NCBI RefSeq assembly: GCF_018977255.1
Contig: NW_024704742.1
Location: 30,878,001-30,942,000, forward strand
DNA: 64,000 nt
Reading direction: 5' to 3'
DNA from: Callorhinchus milii
Lineage: Eukaryota
Shown one piece after another: positions 25,221 through 64,000 of the stretch. The notes beneath the pieces are model-generated. The model ran no database searches, was not told where the DNA came from, and saw only the letters and a list, made by a program, of their open reading frames with translations. The position numbers were made by a program, and so were the translations under genes. Every line of letters starts with the position of its first letter. The stretch's first letter is position 1.

Positions 25221-28200
25221 TGCACCACACAAGCAGGTTTCTCTTTAACCACATGAAGCGTAAGATTTTTAAGGTGTCATCAAAAAGGCTTAGTTTGTAA
25301 CTTTTTAAAATGTAAAACCTTTTCTCTCGGTCTCAGAGCAAACTTTCTGACTGGCAATGCCTCTCCCAAAGCTGTCACCTCCACTGACCACTAATGTTTT
25401 GTCAATAGGAGGCGGAATTCAAATGGGACAAAATATATATTCTATATACAGGAGTCAACTGTACTGTATCACCGTAACCCCCACCTACGCAGCTTTTAAA
25501 TCAGCTGTTACACATGAAATTCCACCTGCCTTTTTGTTTTTAGGATGGGTAAGAAACTGCTGTTCTCAGCAGATGTGAGTCACACAAGGTCCTGACATTC
25601 ACTTCATGGCATGGAAAGAGACTCAACTGGCTTGTGTCAGAAGCAGCTGTGTGTGTGTCATTTCTGCTGGTTCCTGACCACAGCTCTCACCGAAGTCCAG
25701 GTGCCTTTTGATAACAATACTCCCTATCCCTGGACACCACTATATACGCTACTTTGGGAGCCTCTCTTTGCTCTGACAGCTGCCCTGTTCTCAATAGCAG
25801 GCACTTTTTTAGAGTGGGAAGATGGTAGCTATCCAAAGCAGGGAACAAATCACAAATTTCTCCTAACATTGTTTACAGGGTATTGTTTTAATAATCTTTT
25901 CACTTTTTCTGTTTGTAATGAAGAGGGTGTAGCTTTATATTGAACGATACTCTTTCCTTTCCTCCTCAAGAAAATAATAATAATCATTGTATTGATGTTA
26001 TAAATTATATGATATAAAAATATTTGCTTCTTCAATGTTGTCTCCTTTAGCTTGTATACTGAACTGCACTTTGTAAACCAATGGACATAAGCTTATAACA
26101 GAGACCAAGTACAGTAGGACCAAGAATAATAGTCCTATTAAGTACCTCAAAATGATTAAATGATTCCTTCCCTTCACCCCACCGAAAGGTTGGTGACATG
26201 GAGATACGTTCTTAACTATTGAGGTAAGTGTGCCGAACATTGGGCGGTTAAAATATTTCAGTGAACAACAGAATTGATTTGTGCTCTGAGATGCTGTCCG
26301 GCGTGGAAGGCGCTATATAAATCCAAGTTATTATTGTTGTTTGTGACATGCTACACCTGTCCGGGTGGATCTTGAAGGTCCCAATTGGCTGCCGCGTTTC
26401 GCTCACAAATTATACAGTCAATTCACTTTACAATATAGTCTGTGAAGCGCTTTGAGACATCTCGAAGAGGTGATAAGGCGCTATATCAAATGCAAGGATT
26501 ATTATTATCCCGTGACACTATTTGAAAAGAGAAAGGTGCTTCCTCTGGTGTATCAGTCGGCAATCCTCCACATAAATTGGACATTCTCCTCCTGACAATT
26601 TGTGAGGCATTGATGTGTGCCTACAAAATTCAGTCAGTTGTACGCTTAACAATAATCATCATAAAGTGCCTCGAGATGTTTCAATGTTCTAGGTGCTAGG
26701 TGNAAAAAACAGTAGTTTTTTATTATGATGCCGTTATCAATAATGATGATTCTTCCATTTGATATAGCATCTTTTCATGTCAATATGTCTCACAGCTCTT
26801 CATTGAATATATTATAAAGTGGTATGACAAATGTAGATAAGGCTCATTGAAGTGGGCAATCAGATGTATTTATGTGGAGATTTTCATATTCCGACCCTTT
26901 CAATCAGAATTGAACTTCAGATGTTCACTGTGTAAAAAATGTATTTNCCCCTTCCAAAAAAGAAACCCCCTCAAACTGCTCCACTGATTTCAGACTATCT
27001 TTATTTGTGACACTAAATGGTCTCTATTCCATCGGCAAAGTGTTTTGGATCTCACACTGTGTAATGTTTGTATTGACAAATGGGCCGGATCCACGTGTGC
27101 AGATGTCTATTAAGGCGTTTACAGCCATTCTCACACCATGAATTGATTGTTCAGGTCTTGTATCTTCTTTCTGATTTTGTACTTCAAGTAATCTGCATTT
27201 GGGAGTTTTGGGAATGAACACGTCATGGCAAATTCAGACCTGCCAGGATCTCAGATTCAGCATTCATCACTAAGGATTTCTGAAATGATGACAATACTGT
27301 AAAATCAACAGAAATGGTCATGTCTCTGGCATATTGGGCAGGTTACAAATGTATAAGTCACTTGTTAAAGGTGCATCAGTGAAAGGTGAAGTTAAACCCT
27401 TGTACTATAATAATGATTGCATTTGATATGGCACCAAAAGCATTGAAACATCTCAAATGATTTAACAGGTAATTGATGTTGAGTGTAGTGACTGTATATG
27501 TAAGCAAATGTGGCAGCCATTTTCACACAGCAGGGTCCCTCATAGGTGAATGAGTAATTTAATGGAAAAATGGTTGGTGAGGATTGGGTTCATAGAGTGA
27601 TACAGCACAGAAAGAGACCATTTGACTCAACTAGTCCATGCTGGTGTTTATACTCCACACAAGCCCACGATTCTGCTATCCCCTCACTTATATCCTCATC
27701 TCTCGCAAATCTAAGTAATTCATATTTAATGCTTAAGAATTCTCTACTTTAGACGCAATTAGCCATCATTGCTACTTATTTGTTCTCAAGGCTCGACTGT
27801 TGTAAATTGCGCAGGAGTGCATATTACTCTTAGTACAGGATTTAGCTCATCCAATAAAGGCCAGAGAAGCCTCATAAAAAGAGCAGCATTTCAGCCACTT
27901 CAGTAACTAATGATTCTGGTGCGTCCATGGGTCTCTGCAGGTGATACCTGCAGCAACTGGGAGAAATTGTCTTGTGTGCAATTATCACATTAACATTTTT
28001 TCCGCTCAGTTGCCGAGACCAAAGCAAACTGTACTGGGCACTTTTGGTTTCTGGTTAAACAAGGTCACTGTAGCCAAGAGAATACCTGGAAGAGGAGGAG
28101 CTGACAATTATTTCCTTATACTTGTTACTTTCCCATCAACTTTTGTCTATTGCTTATCCATTTTCCTGGCCCTGTTTTGTGACCGCGGACTAAAACATTA

Positions 28201-45401: not shown

Positions 45402-45696
45402 GCATGGAAGAAGCGCTGGTTTATACTCCGGAGTGGACGTCTGACGGGAGACCCAGACGTGTTGGAATACTACAAAAATGATCACACAAAGAAACCCATC
45501 CGCGTCATTGACTTGAATCTTTGCGAACAAGTGGACGCCGGGCTGACCTTTAACAAGAAGGATCTCGAGAACAGTTATATTTTTGACATCAAAACAATCG
45601 ACCGTGTCTTCTACCTTGTGGCAGACACCGAAGAGGAAATGAATAAGTGGGTTCGATGCATCTGTGACATCTGTGGGTTCAATCCTACTGATGAGG
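45402..45696 (+). CDS. GAB1: GAB1 coding exon 2 (bulk of the N-terminal PH domain), 295 nt, phase 0 to phase 1
   Basis: Acceptor cttatcttcAG (45400-45401) and donor GTaagt (45697). Translation: [98 protein letters not shown]. This matches my recollection of the GAB1 PH domain; [22 protein letters not shown] and [14 protein letters not shown] are GAB1-type rather than GAB2-type. Confidence 0.97.
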
Positions 45697-53125: not shown

Positions 53126-54972
53126 TTGAACCCACAACCTTCTGACTCGGAGGCGAAAGTGCTACAACTGGGCCAGACAGACACCTTAACCGTACATAAG
53201 AAGGAAAATCTAAAATCCCTGGTTACATTTAGACCCTTGAAATCCTAATTTGAGTTTGGAACACAGGAGGTTATGTGAATGCTTACAGCAGCACTGGCTG
53301 TGGTTGTACTATTTATTCAATTAGGTTTTTGCATGAAATGTTTAAAATATAATTCCAACTGAGCTCTGAAAATCTTGTTATTTATTGAGTGATGTATTGC
53401 AATGCAGATTGAATCATTTTGGGCAGGGCCTAATTGAATTTGACATTACGACTTTGTCAGTGAAGCTGAAGTGAAAACAAAATAATTTCCCTCTCAAGCA
53501 CAAAGTACCAATTTGTGTAGGTGGTGCTTAAAAAAGTGAGGGATTTTCCCACACTAAGCATGAGTCAGCAGGCACAATGACTGTTTCGTATTCCTAATGT
53601 CCTGGCATTATGATCCCTCTGTCAGTGTATGATTCAGATACGCCTGATTTAGTCATTCTTGTGGTATTCTTTCCTGCGCAAGAGAGCTGCAGACAAAATC
53701 ACTAATCTTAGTGACCCTGAGTAGATTATTATATTCTCAAAGACAGAAAGGAGTCCCAGAGAAATTGCGTGCCTGCGCCAGAAGAATCTGTGTTATTTCT
53801 TTTACAGTTGCAGCTTTTTAAAAGAAAATATTGAATCCATTTTCCTGTGGTTTGCACCCACCTCCTCTTTCCTTCTTGAATGCCACAGACGCATCCCCAC
53901 CCCCATCAACATTATAACCGAGAGGACTTCACACCCAACCCCCTAAACGTTGTCATCCAGGGGTTCTCATACTCACCCCCTTCCACGACCCTGTCACCCC
54001 CATCCTCACTCAACTCTATAGAGATACATTTAAGAGGGAGCTAGATATACACATGAGGAGAAGGGAATACAAAGGGTATTGGAGGGAGTAAGAAGTGGTT
54101 GAAGACTTAAACAACGGCACAGAGTAGTTAGGCAAGATGGCCCGTTTCCAAATTGTACAGTCTATGTAAATCTATCCATCCTATCCTCAGTGGGTGGGCT
54201 TTTAGCCATTCTGTCCTCACTCTTTGGAACTCCATCCTGGAGTTCCTCTAACTTGTTCCCTCCCTAACAAATGGAACATTTGCCACCTGTGATACGTGCA
54301 AATTGGCCGCCACATTCACCTACAAAAATACACAGTCACTACACTTCATAATACAACCTGCAAAGTGAGTTAAGATGTGTTGACTACCTGAAAAGGCGCT
54401 ATATCAAATTCAAGGGTTATGATAACAAATGCAAGAATTATTACAACGAGATTCAAACTGTGGTTTCATATATTGATTTGAAATTGGGGTTGACGATGAC
54501 AAATTCTGGCATGGCAATTTACCCACAGACATTTAAGGGCCATTTGGCTTTTAAAAATGTGACTTGTGGTTTGACCCTGTGCACGGACACAGATGTGCAT
54601 GTTCAAATCTCTGCTCAAGCTCATTGACCACTGTCAGTTCAGAGGGGAAATTATACTTATTTGGGGTTAACCGGGTATCTGGCATGTATGGAAACTCATT
54701 GCCATGCTTGAAAATATCCAAACCAGAGTTCAAGAGTTCCCAGAAATACAATCATAATTTGCATTTTCCCTTCCTGTTCATTCTAATCCCAGAAGTGGGA
54801 GATAATTGCTGGCAGAATTATAGAAATGCAAGTTGTTGTTGTTAATTGCTTGCAGGATTTTAAAGCTTAAGCAAAATTCACATTGTAAAAATGTCTGTTT
54901 TATGATTTTTGTTATTGGTACAGTTGATAACCATAATTATTTTTTCCGCCTCTTTCTCCCCCTTTTCCCCAG

Positions 54973-55195
54973 ATGCTGTAAAACCAACGCATCTGTCTGG
55001 CCATGCTGCTACTGAGGTACCTCTTTCTGTCAGTACAATGCAGCCTTCTGTACGTGCAGCGGTTTCCATGGGCTCAATACCTCCCCCCTATCAGCCGATC
55101 AGCGTGCGGCACATGGAGTCCCAATCCAGTCAAGAAGAGCCACAGGATTACCTGCTGCTAGCCAACTGTGAAAGCAAAAGACCTGAACCTGCCAG
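54973..55195 (+). CDS. GAB1: GAB1 coding exon 3, 223 nt, phase 1 to phase 2
   Basis: Long polypyrimidine tract then AG (54971-54972); donor GTgaga at 55196. Phase continues exon 2 (G|AT = Asp). Peptide DAVKP...IPPPYQPISV...QEEPQDYLLLANCESKRPEPAR resembles mammalian GAB1 DPVKP...LPPPYQ...[21 protein letters not shown] (recalled). Confidence 0.93.
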
Positions 55196-56604
55196 GTGAG
55201 AGGAGCGCTTGAAGAGAAATGCGGTGGTGCTGTTCGGGATGTGCGTGTGTATGTACAATGCAATGTCTGAAGTACACTTTAATTCAAAATTCTTCGTGTC
55301 TCGACAGCCTGCATCACAGTCTTCATATGAATTGAAGAAGGGTAAATGTTTTTTTCCCCCCCAATGGTAAAGAGTGTCATGATTTGTAGGGGAAGAGGAA
55401 TCTGGAGTTTAAAATGAAGTACAGGATGTTCACAAAGTCCTGTTACCCCACTCCCCCATGTTTTTTTTACACGAACAATTGAAACATGTGGAAGAATGAT
55501 GATAATTGTATTTGGAAGACCTTAATTGTATTCAGTACAAATGTTTAACTGTAGTTAGACGTCGAAAGGATTGCTGTGAACCCCATCATTTTCATGGCAG
55601 ATAATGATCCGTTGCCATGTTCAGTGCGACATCTTCGGTAACATGGATGGAGTGACGGGGAAGTTACTGGTATCAGACATTGTTACACTTGACTCACTCC
55701 AACAGCAAATCAAAAATCATTGGAAGAACAAAAACAGGGTGGGGTTGGGAGGGCGTAACAGGACTTTGTGAGCACCCTGTAGATTTGATTTGAGGTGGAT
55801 GGACAGTGGTGGGGGAGGGGGAGGGCACGGAATGGAAGAGGGGAGTCAGGTTGAGGTGGAAGTGGTGGCTGCAGCTGGAGATGCAAAGGGAATGGTGACG
55901 TAGGTGTGATGATGAGGTGAGTTCATCACTGAAACATGAGCTGTCACATTACAAATGGAATGTGGATCACTAAGTGATTTTTTATTTATAAACATTAATA
56001 TAAGTATGATATTACTGTAATATTAATGTATTTATTTATCAATAGATACATTTGTTAACAAATACACTTGGCAGTAAATACTATCTAGCACTACTAGGCG
56101 TCCCCCTTACATCGAATGCAAGGGAAAAAATGCAAGGATGTTTATGCAACCTATTAAAATGTCACCAACCTGCCCGCTCCCTCCACTCTGCAAGTATTGA
56201 TCTGCTCCATGTCTCCCACCCCACCCCCCAGCTGGTTCCACTAGCGACAGTCAGGGCTTCAGCCTTTCTGCCCCTACCTTCTGAAACTCCACCCGGAGCC
56301 TCTCCTCCTCGCCCCTCCCTTTGAAAGATTGAATCGTATTGAGCAGAGGAGCTAAATGATCTGCGACCAGCAGTGACGGACAAGGTCGTGTATTAATGTT
56401 TCCTGTGTGTCAATTGGCTTAACTTCATCAGTTTTGAAATTTAGGGGGAATTTTCAAGTGAGTGGATGGCATTTCCTTGGCTAAATTGATTGGAAATTGA
56501 AAGAAGTGGAGCAGGGAGTTTTAACTCTACCACTATCTGGCACTGTTCTATACTTTTGAGTTTTTCTCACTCATTCCTTAACTTGTTCTTTCTCAACGTT
56601 ACTT

Positions 56605-57210
56605 GGAACCCAGTTGTTAGTCGATTCGTGGATCGCTTTCGGGAGGGTAATAATCCCTCAAAAAAAAGTGGTCACTCAATCCGTGACTATGAGTGGACAC
56701 TACTGTGCGGAATTGGCTGCCGTGTTTTGCCCACAGAATACACAGTCATTCTACTTTACAGTATATTCTGTGAAGCGTTTTGAGACACCTCAAGGACATG
56801 TTAAGGTGATAATCCTTGAATTTGATATAGCGCTTTATGATGCTATTAATTATTATACATCAAGTAACATCAAACCCACTTTCAAATGTTAATAATATAA
56901 TAATGATAATCCTTGCTGTTAATACAGTGCTTTATCACATTGTTGAGGTGTCTCTACGCTTCACAAAATATATTATGAAGCAGATTGACTGTATAATTTG
57001 TGGATGAAACGCAGCAGCCAATTGAACACAGCAGTGTGCCACAAACAGTCATGGATTGAGCGATCAACTTTTTTTTTGCGGAGGGAAAGCAATCTGCCAA
57101 TCATCTAACAACCAGGTTCCTCCTTACTGCTAGGTAAACAGAGGCATGAGGAGTGAGGAAACTTGATTAAGGTTTCGCCCGGCCCAAGAATCGAACCCAG
57201 GTCCTTTCGC
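56605..57210. mobile_element. Tail-to-tail family-B SINE pair (+ ~56605-56808; - ~56891-57210)
   Basis: Both carry the shared SINE body and the family-B block, in opposite orientations. Other partial SINE copies at ~700-820(-), 1805-2000(-), 10250-10425(+), 13490-13830(-), 18967-19160(-), 26380-26508(+) and 58975-59240(+). Confidence 0.85.
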
Positions 57211-57809
57211 TGTTTGTTCAGAAAGTTTCTTACTATCTCATGGCACATTCTACATGAATCCATCAGCCTTTGATCTATCTTCTTTCACGCACACACACTC
57301 CTTTTGGTGATATGGAATTCTCAGCTAACTCTAAAACGGCCAGGTTTCAAACCTTGCATCTACATGGAGCATTTGGGGTCCTTTGACCTAAAAGCTGCAG
57401 CAGATTTCTGCACTGTGTGAATCTTCAGATGCGCATTTTAAAAATTATGATAGTAGAAACAATTCATTCAGAGAAATGTTTTGGTATTTCAGTTCTGCGT
57501 TGAATTATTCACTGTAAGATCCTGAAATCTTCAAGCTCTGTCGGGACAAAGCTACTTTGGCATGTGAATGTCTAAAATGTAAATGCAGTGTGTGAATATG
57601 CTGTGTGACCTGGCAATAGGTTATTTCTGGCCAGTTGAAGATTCATGGTGCTCCATAAATACACCAGCAACTGTTTGAAGTATTTGTGTGTGAGCACCTC
57701 TCTAATGTTTATCGATGATCCTTAAAAAGCCCTAGGACAAAATTGTGGACGTCAGATGGACTAAGTGAATATGTAACATATACATCTCAAGTTTTTTGTA
57801 AATAAACAC

Positions 57810-58097
57810 GTGGCAAGCTGGTCAGCTGGCAAGTGTGCTTTAGCTGGTCAGACTCCAGCTGTACCCCAACGCAAACTCTGGGGTCCCCAAGCCTTGGCTT
57901 ATGCCAACCTGTACCTAATACTGTCTGGAATTGTGTAAGCAGGATGCACCCTCCAGAGAGAGTGCACATTCCAACAATCTATCTCTGGAATTTCCATGTG
58001 TAGGTGGGATGGTGGGATGTATGGATTCTCAGTTTGGTTTGGATATTCTTAAGCATGGGTTTCCGCATGTGTCAAACACCCAGCTGACTGAACAAAG
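57810..58097 (+). repeat. Longest copy of an unclassified ~300-bp dispersed repeat
   Basis: Shared blocks ggcaagct..ttagctggt.a.actcc, ctctggggtccccaagccttggct..tgccaacc, aatttccatgtgtag and ggatattcttaagca recur at ~21531, ~34275, ~41985 and ~44795 (+), and at ~12500, ~32840 and ~62360 (-). Confidence 0.75.
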
Positions 58098-59764
58098 TGT
58101 AGTATAACATTCCCAAAATGTTCATAAAAGTATATTTAATCTAGTGATCCCCCCCCCAATGAAGCTGTCAAACTTGTTTACTGAATGTAATGCAAGATTG
58201 TAAGTTTGTGGTAAGCTGTATAAAATAAACATCCCTTGAATCTACTATATTTAAAACCACTTGTAAATATTAAGTCTTTACAACATACACTCACTGCTAA
58301 AAATAGCAATCTTTTTAGACATGGGGGGAAATGGGTGCTATTTTTAACTCACCACCATAAGGTTATTTGTATTAATAAATATATCCCAGAATTTAGAGAC
58401 TTTTTTTCCTCACTACATATTTTGGAGCTGCACTCACTTCTTTGCTCTTTGTAAGGCAACAGTGTGGTGAATCGATCACTTTTCCAGTTTATCCTACCCA
58501 CTAACAACATTCAAAATACCAATTTATCCTCTGAATCAGTGGCCAGGGTCATTGGTTTTAAAGTCAGGTCCACAATAATGCCTACAAGTTTGCCCGGTCA
58601 GGCCTGTTTGGCTGTGTTATTAGATAATGGGAGCTTCTCCTGCACTGCCCCACATGGGGCCCCAAATTCCACCTAGTGTCATCCTGTTGTGAAAAGGTTG
58701 TGTCGTGCACAACTGTGGAACATTCTCAAATTCAGTCCCAATTCAGAACCCAGTTTGTTGGAAATGTGAAAAAATCGAAGCTGAATTTAAGAATTTTCCA
58801 CAATAATGCACGATCTTAAATTTTAAGGCAAAATGTTCACAAAGGCTAAGACTCTGTAGAATTTTGATTTCCAAAGTATTTTCTCTCCACCCCACTTCCC
58901 CCACCTAACACTTCCTGCACCAGACATACGGTACCTCTGAGAGAGATTGCAAGTAGGAGTAAGTAACTAACAGTACGTAGGAACCGGGTTGTTAGTTGAT
59001 TGGCGGATCACTTTTCCGGGGTAATAATTCCTTCAAAAAAATATATATTTTTTAAAAAAATAATAATAATTTGGTCACTCAATTCATGACTGTTTGTGGG
59101 ACACTGTTGGGCATAATTGGCAGCCACATTTCACCCACAAAATATACCGTCAATTCACCTTACCATATATCTTGTGCAGCTCTTTGAGGCATCTCAAAGA
59201 CATGATAAGGGGCTATATCAAATGCAAAGATTATTATTATTGCTGTATTTTATAGAATGCATTCAGGTACAGTATCCTTCAGAATTGAATGACTTTATTT
59301 TAGTGACTTTATTTTAGATGAAAAGCTTCTACAGCTCTCTCAGATAGGTGATGCTTGTGAATTGTAGATCATTTACACTAGGGGAAAACAGTAGTAAAAT
59401 AATCCACAAGGCGGTGGCCAATGTTCAGTCAGGTTTTACGATTGATGGTTTATGTTGGATATTAACTTCGAGCAATTAAAATGCTGAAATTACCCATATT
59501 TATTGTCACTTAACATGTTTGATTTTCTTATTGGATCATAGGTTGGGATTTCCTGGCAATTTTAACGTGTACAGAATTAAAGGTTACAGATTAATTCAAT
59601 TTAGTACCACACCACTTTATGGTAGCTGCATTTCAGTGACAGATGGCAGTCTTGCAATTGTACGCTTCTTTTGTTTAAATGAGCTCTTTATTATGTTTGG
59701 CTGTTTAATTAGATATTGCCTTTGTTGTCTTGTCATCTTCCCATTTCCTCTGTTTACGAACTAG

Positions 59765-59851
59765 CCGAACGTCATCTTTTGCTACAGAAGAGGGGGACGA
59801 GTATCTTCTGCTGGAAGATTTTGAAAGCAAAAAGCAACCGTTTCACAACCA
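59765..59851 (+). CDS. GAB1: Putative GAB1 alternative cassette exon between exons 3 and 4 (87 nt, phase 2-2), (S)RTSSFATEEGDEYLLLEDFESKKQPFHN(Q)
   Basis: Pyrimidine tract (tcttcccatttcctctgttt) and ctAG at 59763-59764; donor GTgagt at 59852. Length is 29 codons, with no stop in the frame set by exon 3. A striated-muscle GAB1 isoform with an extra short exon at this position is known in mammals (recalled). Confidence 0.8.
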
Positions 59852-60444
59852 GTGAGTTTTGTAAGCTGCATACGAGTCTATGATGAAAGCGTAGGCTGGT
59901 GTGCAGTTCAGAGTGTTCAGGATTGGTTTTTTGTGACAGAAAATGAATGATTCGGCAATTCCACTCTGCAAATTATGCCACATTCACTGCTTGAAAAGTC
60001 TTGCTGTTGATATTAACAGGCTCCTACTAACACTTCACATGCACCGTGTTGATGCTTTGAATCTGTACGAGGTGAGATGTTGGCAGGGGCTCGAGCTTGG
60101 TGATTACTTGGTGGAGGTTGCATGGTGCATTTGATTTGTTAATCATAAACTGGCCACTGTAGCCCACTTCTCACACACTCTCCCTAACCTCATTGAAAGA
60201 CTTAATTGTGCAGAGACTTGCTCTTGAACGGCCTTACGCGAAGTAATTTGAAGGCAGAATGATTTTCGAAGTGTACTTACACACTCCCGCACAGTTAAAC
60301 ACACGTCAGGGTAAGTTGTTACAGTGGCCTTATGTTTGAGCGTTCGCGTGAAAATGCTTTATGAATCCTTAATAAAATGAAGAGGAATGACAATGAGGTA
60401 AACTCTGCAGATTTTCAGAGGCTGGCAAGCGAAGGGTGACATTT

Positions 60445-60680
60445 GGGAACATAGGAACAGAAGTAGGCTATTCAGCCCCCTGAGCCTGTTCCACCATTCT
60501 ATTAGATCATGGTTGATCTGTACCTCAACTCCATTTACCCACATTTGCCCATATCCCTAGAAACCCTTACGTAAGAAAAATCTATCGACCACTGTCTTGA
60601 AAATTTGAATTGATCCAGTATCCTCAGCATTTGGGAAAGCGAGTTCCAGATTTCTACTACTCTTTGTGTGGAAAATCTTG
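60445..60680 (-). mobile_element. CR1 3' fragment
   Basis: gaacataggaacagaagtaggctattcagccccctgagcctgttccaccattc...gagttccagatttctactactctttgtgtg. Similar minus-strand CR1 ends lie at ~14400-14580, ~35160-35580 and ~43860-44030; plus-strand ones at ~21640-21755 and ~54020-54175. Confidence 0.85.
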
Positions 60681-60959
60681 ACCTTGGCTCCAGACACCTT
60701 CATCCTTTCCCACTGCAACTCCAAAGAAAACAACAAACACAAGGATGTAGGAGAAGAAGATATAGCTGTAAAGGTAACCTTTCCAGTGGCCTTTTGCTGC
60801 CCCCACCCCCCCCACCCTGTAAAGGAAGTGATGAGAGAAAAATTACAATTACATGTCTGCCACCTTTTGATGGCAGGAAATGGTATTAGAGAGTGTTTTC
60901 ACTAACATTAAATAGCTAGCTAAGTTCCAGCTTGCAGTTTATGGTGGAAGGCAGAATTA

Positions 60960-61770
60960 TCATTCCTCAGGGCTCTATTCTCAATCCTCTCCTCTTCACC
61001 ATCTACATGCTCCCCCTTGGTGACATCATTGGTAACAGCATGGGAGTCCACTTCCACATGTATGTGGATGACACCCAACTCTATCTCTGTGCCTCAACCT
61101 TCGATTCCAGGACCACTGCTGCTCAAGTCCTAAATTTCTTCAGCTAAATGTCAACAAGACTGAAGCTGTCCTGCTTGGCTCCCACTAGCATCTTTTCACC
61201 TCAGACGCTGACGACATCAACCTGCATGTTCCTCTCTACACAAAGTGCAGGTTAGCCAGATCTCTGCAGCTCACATCCTCTCCTGCACCTGGATCCGTGA
61301 TCCTATCGTCAGTTAGCTCCATTGGCTCTCCATCCCCCAGAAGATCAAATTCAAGATCATGGTCTTTGTGTTAAAATCCCTTCAGACCCTCGCCCCATTC
61401 TATCTATTGTGATCTGAAACTCGACCAATCCAGCCTTCTTCCTGCCCCACCATCCGACCCACCAATAACAGCCAATGACAACAAACAACAAATCACATTT
61501 GTAAAGCGCCTTTCACATCAGGAGCACGTCCCAAGGCGCTGCCTTAACAGACGAACCTTGAGCCATTCTGCCCTCACTCTCTGAAACTCCATCCTGGGAT
61601 CCTCCCTCTCCATCTACCTCCCCATTACATTTCTTCAACCACTCTTTCAGCCACCTTTTCCACCTCCCCCACACACCCCCCCCACCTTGGATGTCCAATC
61701 AGCTGTGGGAAGTTCATGCAGAAAGTCCTCCCAACATGAAAGATGATATATAACTGTAAATTGTTGTTTG
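60960..61770 (+). mobile_element. Decayed L2-clade LINE: RT core fragment through 3' tail
   Basis: [22 protein letters not shown]...[12 protein letters not shown] (YADD-type RT motif), then LNVNKTE-like and LHWLP..QKIKFK-like segments. Ends in an L2 tail ...gtaaattgttgttt. Confidence 0.88.
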
Positions 61771-62059
61771 TGCTGATATACAGGCTGGATTAAAGGGAGA
61801 TTAAAGGAGCATTCGACCTGAGCTTTTGTTGGATGTGGGATGAGGTGGGGGGAGAGTTTTACTTAAAAATGTTTAAAAATGGGCATCTTAGTCTGATGCT
61901 AGAAACGTCTTGGAAAAACTGCTTGGTGCAGTTCTGATTGATTCAGACTTCAGCTGGTCTGAAGCAAAGGGTGAATGTTTCTAAAAGCAAGAGAGAGGAG
62001 TCACTGAGTCCCGACCAGCGCAAACCCCAGTGAATAAACCCCAGTGAATAACAGTGAAA

Positions 62060-62147
62060 CCTCCCGTACCTCCAGTCACCACCAGGAGTACTCAAGCTGG
62101 GGTCTCCCAGCCTGAGTACTCCTGGTGGTGACTGGAGGTACGGGAGG
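62060..62147. repeat. Near-perfect inverted repeat (42-nt arms, 1 mismatch, 4-nt loop)
   Basis: cctcccgtacctccagtcaccaccaggagtactcaagctggg-gtct-cccagcctgagtactcctggtggtgactggaggtacgggagg. Confidence 0.97.
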
Positions 62148-63966
62148 AAGAGAAGTGTTGGCATCGTGTATGGGATGTGGGAATGGAAAGAAGAGAAAGA
62201 ATATGGTTGGTTTGAGGGAGAGGGATGGGAAGGGCTGGCAACGTGGGGGTGAGGAGGGCCAGCAGAATGGAGAAGAGGATGAGTCCAGCTGCTGCTTCAT
62301 TGAGAAGAGAGAAGAGAAATACTAGCACTATGATATGCCTCGTTTTTTTAAAAATGTTTTGGTCAACTGGGTCTGAAAACCCATCACCACTCTTAAGAGT
62401 ATCCAAACCAGACCGAGAGTTCCAAGTATGTCATCTACGCATTCGGGAAATTCCCCTATTTGGAATGGATGCTCATTCCTCTCCCCAGAGGGACCCAACC
62501 TCCTTATCTAATCCCTGAAAGTATTGGCAGATTGGCAAGAGCCAAGGATATGCCAGCTACTGAATAAAATAAGGGAGATAAAAGGAGCAAATTTTTGCTT
62601 TGTGCATTTCCTGTGCAAATTATGCAGGGTTGGCTGGAGGGGCTGAATGGCTGACTCCTGTTCCAATGCTCTAAATTAATTTAATTTTGACGCCCCTGAA
62701 GTGCGGAGCTTCTTTGACCTTGATTTAAACTCACATAATCCAAGAATAACTCTTTTATTTTTATTTCTCATGGAATAAAATCGGCACAGTTCTAACTGAA
62801 GGACGACTTTACACTAGACGATTGCAGAGCATTCAAAGCAATATCAGCGATATCTTCACTTGGCAACAGTGGAAATGTGATCATGGGGAGTTTCATCTGA
62901 GCTGTGACACACTTTTGAATTATCGAGCTTGGGTTTGGATACAATCAACAATAGAGTTTCAAGGACAGTGTGATGTTTTCTGAAAAGTGTCAAAGCCTGA
63001 GATGCCTTTTGCTATAGCTGCTTCTGAAATACGTGTCACATCTTGTCTTGGCATCGGCCTCTTGCTCGTCCCTCGCATTCCTCCGCACCGCCATCGGAGG
63101 TCGTGCTATATACTTGTCAGGAGGGAACGTGATTTGCATAGTTCTCAACCAGAACATTCACCCTCATGATTCACGTCCACTCAGAGTCCACTCAACACTC
63201 TTGATTCCGGTGAGAGGTAGATGGGAGGCAAAATTAGAGCTCTTTATATTGGCTGTAACTGCTGCACAAACAAGAGTGCAGACCCAACTGAAATTGTACT
63301 GGACGTGTCATAAATTAGTATACTGTCGGAATGCACCATCAAGTAAAACATAATACAGTACAAAGAGAAAAAAATTGGAAATCAATGGTGCGCTGTCTGA
63401 ATGCATTTTGTTTGGAGACATTTTAAGACCAATTGATTTTTCTAGAATATTAATCTCATTTAAGACTGGCAGAATATTTCAATGTTCCTCAGGTTATCCG
63501 GAAGCACTGTGAAGTTTTTTTGTTAATTGAAAATGAAAATATGTGTTTTTCTATCTGCATGTAAATATTCGAATGGATTTAATTTCTTGTGTTTGCTGGT
63601 TGACATAATTATTTTATCTCAATTACCTTTTTCAGTCGGCAACCCCACCTTTTCTTATGCAGCTGGTCCATTCATGTAATGTGGATGCAGATAACACAGT
63701 GGCACCAGCACCTTCCTGGGCTCTTGTAAATTTGAAGTCATTGCCAACTTCAGACATAACATACTATTGTAATCCATGAATTGTGGATCTTATTGTTTAA
63801 TAAAAAAAAGAACTGTTGGGGTTGCTTGTTGTTATAGCTGTCAAATCAGTTTGCAGAAAGACAACCCAGCCCGTCTGATTTGCTCTGATTGCTGTTCTCT
63901 GCCTCCACTGACTGACGTTGACAAGTGGTTTCTGAAAAATGTTCTTACTTTTCCCTCCTGTTCCAG

Positions 63967-64000
63967 GTTGCATGCAAATGCTTTGTCCAAATCCGCTTCA
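63967..64000 (+). CDS. GAB1: GAB1 exon 4, 5' start (truncated by window end)
   Basis: Strong acceptor ttcttacttttccctcctgttccAG (63965-63966). Phase-2 continuation gives R-LHANALSKSAS, similar to mammalian RTHADSAKSTSS (recalled). Confidence 0.8.

Follow-up and report, generated by a model that had tools for sequence, protein, structure and literature searches.

An alternatively spliced GAB1 cassette exon of the elephant shark resembles the Tyr183 motif of exon 3 and is probably an ancient duplicate of it

In mouse heart, a high molecular weight form of Gab1 (high-MW Gab1) contains, between exons 3 and 4, an extra exon of 81 bp that encodes 27 residues; this form is confined to heart and skeletal muscle (Yasui 2016, PLoS One, PMC5115770). 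According to the text of that paper, forms that include and forms that skip the exon both exist in mouse and human, NRG-1 leads to tyrosine phosphorylation of high-MW Gab1, and this form contributes to AKT activation; on overexpression, low-MW Gab1 was nearly as effective in enhancing AKT activation as high-MW Gab1 (Yasui 2016, PMC5115770). The legend of its Fig. 2E describes a gel shift from ∼100 to ∼120 kDa for the 27-residue insert, far above the mass of the insert (Yasui 2016, PMC5115770), and this excess may reflect the strongly acidic nature of the inserted segment.

The second described system is the motif around Tyr183 of Gab1. This residue is highly conserved in a published alignment that includes Callorhinchus milii, its phosphorylation has been found repeatedly according to PhosphoSitePlus, and NMR of the human protein places it centrally in an intrinsic helix, Pro180–Ile187 (Dietrich 2026, Biopolymers, PMC13435814). 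The text of the same paper describes the motif as having no known partner, states that the tyrosines of Gab1 tend to work in pairs, and names human Tyr627/Tyr659 as the C-terminal SHP2-binding pair (Dietrich 2026, PMC13435814). A term search of this text returned zero occurrences each of “isoform,” “exon,” and “splic.” A full-text search of the literature yielded no other primary work on the extra exon and no statement on its origin, and the texts of Yasui 2016 and Dietrich 2026, taken without figures (such as the species list of Yasui Fig. 2D) or supplements, hold no link between the exon and the Tyr183 motif and nothing on the exon in cyclostomes. The exon itself is already known, having been published in 2016 and annotated. 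What is new here is an alternative insert of 28 residues at the same position in lampreys, together with a modest new hypothesis, that the exon arose by duplication.

The DNA analyzed is a stretch of 64,000 nucleotides from C. milii, referred to as the window, in which an earlier note had predicted a hidden cassette exon of GAB1. The open frame around the cassette was used as the query of a protein search, which returned 31 candidates. All 24 of those with an E-value of 10 or better were named GAB1 isoforms of cartilaginous fishes. The best match, at 100% identity, was P0002, [quoted passage not shown] which reads ...ESKRPEPA-S-RTSSFATEEGDEYLLLEDFESKKQPFHN-Q-LHANALSK... and thereby has exactly the predicted junctions. 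This identity, together with the junctions, establishes the window as elephant shark GAB1 and the cassette as already present in RefSeq; isoform X2 carries the exact insert, with no difference from the window in either sequence or junctions. When P0002 was compared with the window by tblastn, matches were obtained to exon 2 near 45402, to exon 3, to the cassette, and to the first 34 bases of exon 4. The match to exon 3 covered P0002 residues 108–196 and stopped at 55193, and the 3′ boundary of this exon at 55195 was an end or a joint of contigs in four sequencing runs. Single N letters are present in the assembly at window positions 26703 and 26947.

The features of the region are collected in Table 1. 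The claim of an 87-nucleotide, AG/GT-bounded, phase 2-2 exon was confirmed by the flanking AG and GTGAGT, the open frame, and the preserved phase. The pyrimidine tract of the acceptor is interrupted by purines within its last nine bases. Translation from 59766 yields the stop-free sequence RTSSFATEEGDEYLLLEDFESKKQPFHN; of the two remaining frames, one contains a stop. The junction codons are AGC (Ser) between exon 3 and the cassette, CAG (Gln) between the cassette and exon 4, and AGG (Arg) where exon 3 joins exon 4 directly; because all three are in frame, the reading frame is intact with or without the cassette. That both exons end in phase 2, as the earlier note had pointed out, is true, but a cassette inserted into a phase-2 intron has no other choice if it is to preserve the frame. 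Between the flanking stops, the open frame that contains the cassette spans only 48 codons, a likely reason for its absence from the list of open reading frames. The exon is nonetheless not hidden, as had been supposed, since it is present in RefSeq isoform X2 and in 120/120 GAB1 isoforms among the matches listed in the region search described below.

Table 1. Positions of the GAB1 features in the window
Feature	Position	Strand	Details
GAB1 exon 3	54973..55195	+	223 nt; phase 2 end; donor GTGAGA at 55196
Exon 3 tyrosine motif QEEPQDYLLLANCESKR	55131..55181	+	Chimaera counterpart of the human Tyr183 helix motif; Gab-family-wide
Cassette acceptor AG	59763..59764	+	Sequence; joint 55195->59765 in runs X1 and X2
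GAB1 cassette exon	59765..59851	+	87 nt, 29 codons including junction codons; phase 2-2; alternatively spliced
Cassette tyrosine motif TEEGDEYLLLEDFESKK	59784..59834	+	Probable second copy of the exon 3 motif
Cassette donor GTGAGT	59852..59857	+	Sequence
GAB1 exon 4 start	63967..64000	+	LHANALSKSAS after the junction codon; window end lies inside the exon

Ten rows of sequencing runs contained the 87 bases of the cassette, the type of these runs being only guessed as RNA; the presence of spliced joints argues that runs X1 and X2 are RNA. Joints were read from runs X1, X2, X5, and X14 over 54900–64000. The skipping joint from 55195 to 63967, with GT..AG boundaries, was present in all four runs, and the inclusion joint from 55195 to 59765, likewise GT..AG, in two of the four, at a depth of 7.5 in run X1 and 24.5 in run X2. 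Contigs of these two runs span 59763–59853, and their short inclusion contigs include 28 letters of exon 3. In run X5, cover extends over the intron in its entirety (30/30 bins), which makes the run uninformative on inclusion. Run X14 has zero cover over the cassette and shows the skipping joint only. Of the two junctions by which the earlier note had suggested checking the exon, the first was thus observed in runs X1 and X2, but the joint from 59851 to 63967 was not among the 15 joints listed (59 more exist) and is supported by the RefSeq model. Exon 3 and the cassette occur together in P0002 and in the contigs, showing that they are not mutually exclusive. The segment at 59765–59851 is a genuine alternatively spliced cassette exon of GAB1, located between exons 3 and 4.

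With 34 occurrences in the window and 55 expected, the RBFOX-type word TGCATG is not enriched, so that a specific regulator of this type is without support from the word counts and is a lead only. The nearest copy on the + strand lies at 60119–60124, 268 nucleotides downstream of the cassette, and another falls at 63969–63974, within the initial codons of exon 4. Within intron 3, two stretches, 56724–57331 and 59156–59459, have a word depth of thousands, compared with tens, in all four runs, and many joints connect ∼56.77 kb to ∼59.2 kb. Both stretches resemble an interspersed repeat of high abundance, and one of the putative copies lies only ∼300 nucleotides upstream of the cassette.

Comparison with the mammalian exon revealed a common position between exons 3 and 4, a common character as a short in-frame cassette, and inclusion as well as skipping, as far as the published text describes the mammalian exon (Yasui 2016, PMC5115770). 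A human immunogen peptide given there equals the chimaera cassette at 18 of 27 positions by manual count, including the whole EYLLLEDFESK block, and the common core can be written SSF..EEG.EYLLLEDFESK. The chimaera cassette is longer (87 nucleotides and 29 residues versus 81 and 27) and differs at its C-terminal end, which reads KKQPFHN versus KTIPLQ in the mammalian sequence. Judged by these likenesses, the chimaera cassette is the ortholog of the extra exon of striated-muscle high-MW Gab1. The mammalian muscle isoform that the earlier note had mentioned exists, and its extra exon is orthologous.

A region search with P0002 residues 150–250 produced 708 matches, of which 120 were listed. Both the exon 3 motif and the cassette were present in every one of the 120 GAB1 isoforms among the matches listed, which came from sharks, rays, coelacanth, paddlefish, sturgeon, bowfin, platypus, turtles, alligator, birds, a lizard, and many mammals, and which included a human entry of 721 residues; amphibian GAB1 was not among these 120 of 708. 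In an alignment of 25 gnathostome GAB1 proteins, cassette residues Glu206, Glu209, Tyr210, Leu211–Leu213, Glu214, Glu217, and Ser218 were invariant, as were exon 3 motif residues Pro179–Lys191. The core EEG-D/E-EYLLLEDFESK has scarcely changed from chimaera to human. An orthologous exon, which the earlier note had asked to be sought in other vertebrates, is found from sharks to mammals among the matches listed, and its suggestion that the exon is ancient in jawed vertebrates is not only borne out but conservative as to age, since lampreys have an insert too.

GAB1 also contains a second alternative region of ancient date, which lies outside the window. Between residues ∼620 and 650, comparison of P0002 with P0003 revealed that DEESFYCTVPITP substitutes in some chimaera and shark isoforms for a segment with a Tyr-Val-x-Met site. 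A similar swap, DETFFSYYCTSL versus a segment ending in PPYIPM, distinguishes lamprey P0129 from P0303 at residues ∼628–662. This looks like a conserved choice between alternative exons that would remove one PI3-kinase-type site.

The cassette resembles the tail of the preceding exon. Aligned locally with BLOSUM62, the two protein segments scored 45, compared with 18.6 ± 3.7 for shuffled sequences, of which the maximum was 38 and 0/5000 reached the observed value. At the DNA level, 33 of 47 positions were identical and the score was 19, compared with 8.0 ± 1.2 for shuffles, again with 0/5000 reaching it. The shuffled-control comparison proposed in the earlier note was thus passed for protein and DNA alike. 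Its gap-free alignment to the end of exon 3 holds over ∼16–21 residues, with the final Pro displaced by one residue. The DNA strings that it quoted are present, but they add nothing beyond the protein likeness, and the codon comparison that it proposed gave no significant excess: at residues common to cassette and exon 3, 6 of 10 codons were identical where 3.3 would be expected (P = 0.06).

A six-frame scan of the 64-kb window, in which the last 24 residues of exon 3 were compared with 12,780 windows, returned the cassette as the best non-self match with a score of 43; the next unrelated match scored 37, and the 99.9th percentile was 35. When the core of the cassette was compared with all 24-residue windows of its own protein, the tail of exon 3 proved to be the best partner in 14 of 16 lineages, namely 12 jawed vertebrates and two lampreys, and in these 14 the score was reached by 0–2 of 2000 shuffles; the 12 gnathostome lineages are not independent, as they have a common ancestry. 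The next-best internal matches were the two C-terminal SHP2-docking tyrosine sites. Alignment by hhalign of a cassette profile (14 rows) with a 15-row profile of the exon 3-type motif from paralogs that included GAB2 and GAB3 gave a probability of 93.5 and P = 2.2e-7 over 30 columns, with motif windows that, like those compared in hagfish, were chosen by a Tyr-centered pattern and are therefore biased towards likeness.

Residue by residue, cassette and Tyr183 motif have in common acidic residues, a Tyr, three hydrophobic residues, and a fixed downstream block of ESK followed by a basic residue; they differ in that the cassette copy has Phe in place of Cys and Glu-Asp in place of Ala-Asn. Of the two family features, the acidic-Tyr-three hydrophobic run is present in the chimaera cassette (DEYLLL), and the Cys six residues after the Tyr is replaced by Phe. 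In bowfin, cyprinid, and lampreys the cassette has a Cys here, as does the putative parent motif, and one hagfish paralog has Phe at the Cys position of its primary motif. In exon 3 the motif reads YLWL in sharks, rays, coelacanth, paddlefish, sturgeon, bowfin, and cyprinid and YLLL in chimaera and tetrapods, and in the cassette it reads YLLL in all of these lineages; the YLLL in exon 3 of chimaera and tetrapods increases the likeness of their two copies. The ESKK block is common to both copies in gnathostomes and absent from both in cyclostomes, a pattern that could reflect co-evolution, gene conversion, or independent origins.

The wider family was sampled by an exhaustive search of cluster representatives with P0002, after which names were looked up. 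The exon 3-type motif (acidic residue, Tyr, three hydrophobic residues, two residues, Cys) was present in 19 of the 56 representatives of at least 400 residues, and its carriers included GAB2, GAB3, a tunicate protein, and hagfish proteins; GAB3 was sampled only through the cluster representatives, and GAB4 was not identified. A third search found this motif in 120/120 GAB2 proteins, and a second motif within 10–70 residues of the first in 0/120. The comparison with GAB2 and GAB3 suggested in the earlier note therefore yielded a profile match by hhalign but no doubled motif in the 120 GAB2 proteins. Lungfish GAB2 (P0127) has, after its Tyr motif, the segment ...RRTENARSASFSQ..., which resembles the end of chimaera exon 3 followed by the start of the cassette, ...PEPASRTSSFAT..., with Arg-x-x-Ser-Phe in both. 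This likeness may be a common basophilic-kinase site or a trace of a relation of the cassette to the ancestral exon 3/4 junction.

In lampreys, isoforms X1 and X4 of a GAB1-like protein differ by exactly 28 residues (212–239, STRSTAPAPRADEYFLLGDCGVNCTPAD), which lie in the place equivalent to that of the cassette and contain ADEYFLLGDC. The same insert is present in Lethenteron, and the protein of Lampetra fluviatilis is without it. The two motif copies both read YFLL in Petromyzon, and in Lethenteron the cassette has YLLL and exon 3 has YFLL. In hagfish, two GAB1-like paralogs contain a further acidic Tyr motif, which follows the first by ∼28 and ∼39 residues and does not significantly resemble it (scores of 21 and 14, reached by 111 and 1042 of 2000 shuffles). 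In 4/4 comparisons, the second motif of cyclostomes was closer, by small margins, to the cassette of gnathostomes than to their exon 3 tail. Anchored scores were 31–50 between the two copies within jawed vertebrates and 17–31 between either copy and its cyclostome counterpart. A tree of 28 proteins, in which the cassette columns were kept in the alignment, has a three-way unresolved fork formed by the cassette-bearing cyclostome genes, gnathostome GAB1, and a second cyclostome group with GAB2 and GAB3, this second group joining GAB2 and GAB3 at 88/93 support. Placement of the cassette-bearing cyclostome genes as GAB1 orthologs was accordingly left undecided by the tree. As far as the alternative insert at the same place in lampreys is a guide, the cassette predates the jawed vertebrates.

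The observations can be explained by the following model. Before lampreys and jawed vertebrates separated, the 3′ part of exon 3 would have been duplicated within the gene and thereby have given rise to the cassette; this part encodes the family-wide motif that surrounds Tyr183 in human and consists of acidic residues, a Tyr, three hydrophobic residues, and then a Cys. That the cassette is such an ancient internal duplicate, older than the split between lampreys and gnathostomes, we consider probable on balance. The partial tandem duplication of exon 3 proposed in the earlier note is upheld in that the likeness goes beyond shuffles and exon 3 ranks first among internal partners in 14 of 16 lineages; by itself, this likeness is indistinguishable from convergence on a short motif. 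Against duplication it counts that the likeness extends over only ∼20 residues of a disordered acidic region, in which short motifs can converge, and that both cyclostome copies lack the ESKK block. An unrelated intronic sequence might have been exonized and then selected to bind the partner of the exon 3 Tyr183 motif, and we regard this as a rather unlikely alternative. The shortness of the likeness, typical of linear motifs, suits it, as do the codon identity that falls short of significance (P = 0.06), the hagfish copies that are not significantly alike, and the position following the three hydrophobic residues, which switches among Phe, Cys, and Trp between lineages; the Cys of bowfin and cyprinid is apparently a secondary gain, so that convergent change does happen here. 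However, the ∼20 residues are collinear and comprise two equally spaced blocks, acidic residues with YLLL and, three residues later, ESK with a basic residue, a stretch that exceeds most linear motifs in length. Moreover, the best internal partner is the preceding exon rather than the other acidic Tyr-hydrophobic sites of the protein, and the cassette profile matches the GAB2/GAB3 motif too.

Duplication could also have happened more than once, with separate copies of the exon 3 tail arising in lampreys or hagfish and in gnathostomes, or gene conversion could have kept the copies alike. The higher anchored scores within jawed vertebrates than between either copy and its cyclostome counterpart, the YFLL in both Petromyzon copies, and the fork in which the tree leaves the cassette-bearing cyclostome genes relative to GAB1 are what such histories would produce. 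They nevertheless appear improbable, given that the inserts agree in position, alternative use, and size (28 versus 27–29 residues), that the cyclostome second motifs are closer to gnathostome cassettes in all four comparisons, if by small margins, and that the Lethenteron copies differ (YLLL versus YFLL), which speaks against ongoing conversion; slow rates in gnathostomes and fast rates in cyclostomes explain the scores without extra events. That a real exon resembles its neighbor by chance, with neither origin nor function in common, is very improbable. Both segments are acidic and of low complexity, and the best unrelated match of the scan came within reach of the cassette (37 versus 43), but no shuffle among 5000 equaled the observed scores for protein or DNA, at most 2 of 2000 did so in the 14 lineages, the top non-self match of 12,780 windows falls on a proven exon of the same gene, and the hhalign P value is 2.2e-7.

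Under the duplication model, inclusion of the cassette would place a second copy of the motif 28 residues past the first, the two tyrosines of P0002 being Tyr182 and Tyr210. Where a single docking or helix site is otherwise available, the partner of the Tyr183 motif would meet a pair of them in the muscle isoform, and such a pair would modify signaling, for example from NRG-1/ErbB to AKT in cardiomyocytes. That inclusion gives this partner a second, paired site in muscle is a tentative proposal, and the nearly equal enhancement of AKT activation by low-MW Gab1 stands against it (Yasui 2016, PMC5115770). The doubled kinase/SH2 docking site put forward in the earlier note is likewise a hypothesis. 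An AlphaFold2 model of P0002, built on a 25-row alignment, has a mean pLDDT of 37.8, which is too low to judge helices; it lacks a helix at both motifs, including the exon 3 motif, which is helical by NMR in human. The cassette also loosely fits three further motif classes, none of which is adopted here: an LC3-interacting region (acidic residues, then aromatic-x-x-aliphatic), an acidic dileucine sorting signal, and a STAT5-type phosphotyrosine site. The combined explanation, an orthologous cassette that arose by duplication from exon 3 and would provide a paired docking or helix site in the muscle isoform, is in our estimate the likely one.

The cassette is far older than “conserved in mammals” would suggest, being alternatively used in lampreys and having a core that is near-invariant from chimaera to human. 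It also repeats the Tyr183 motif, to which the text of Dietrich 2026 (PMC13435814) assigns no function and in which the isoform goes unmentioned. A comparison of single-motif with double-motif isoforms could reveal both the partner of the Tyr183 motif and the role of the heart isoform. A bolder analogy, which we think doubtful, is that a duplicate of the Tyr183 helix motif more than 500 million years old forms, in heart and muscle only, one half of a two-pronged module, comparable to the Tyr627/Tyr659 pair for SHP2, for a tandem-SH2 or helix-binding partner; if true, this would account for the conservation of the Tyr183 motif as well as for the contribution of the high-MW isoform.

The pair proposed here has a counterpart within the same protein, as the SHP2-type pair of P0002, Tyr672 and Tyr703, is 31 residues apart, and both pairs consist of two acidic Tyr-hydrophobic sites separated by ∼30 residues. 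The exon 3 site differs in lying in a helix, according to the published text, unlike extended SH2 ligands. Alternative exons that derive from tandem exon duplication form a general class, recognized by likeness to the neighboring exon, equal phase, and alternative use. The GAB1 cassette agrees with this class in its significant likeness to the adjacent exon, its equal phase, and its alternative use. It is unlike the class in that only the 3′ third of exon 3 would have been copied and in that the cassette is added to its putative parent exon rather than swapped for it, by which the motif would be doubled and not replaced.
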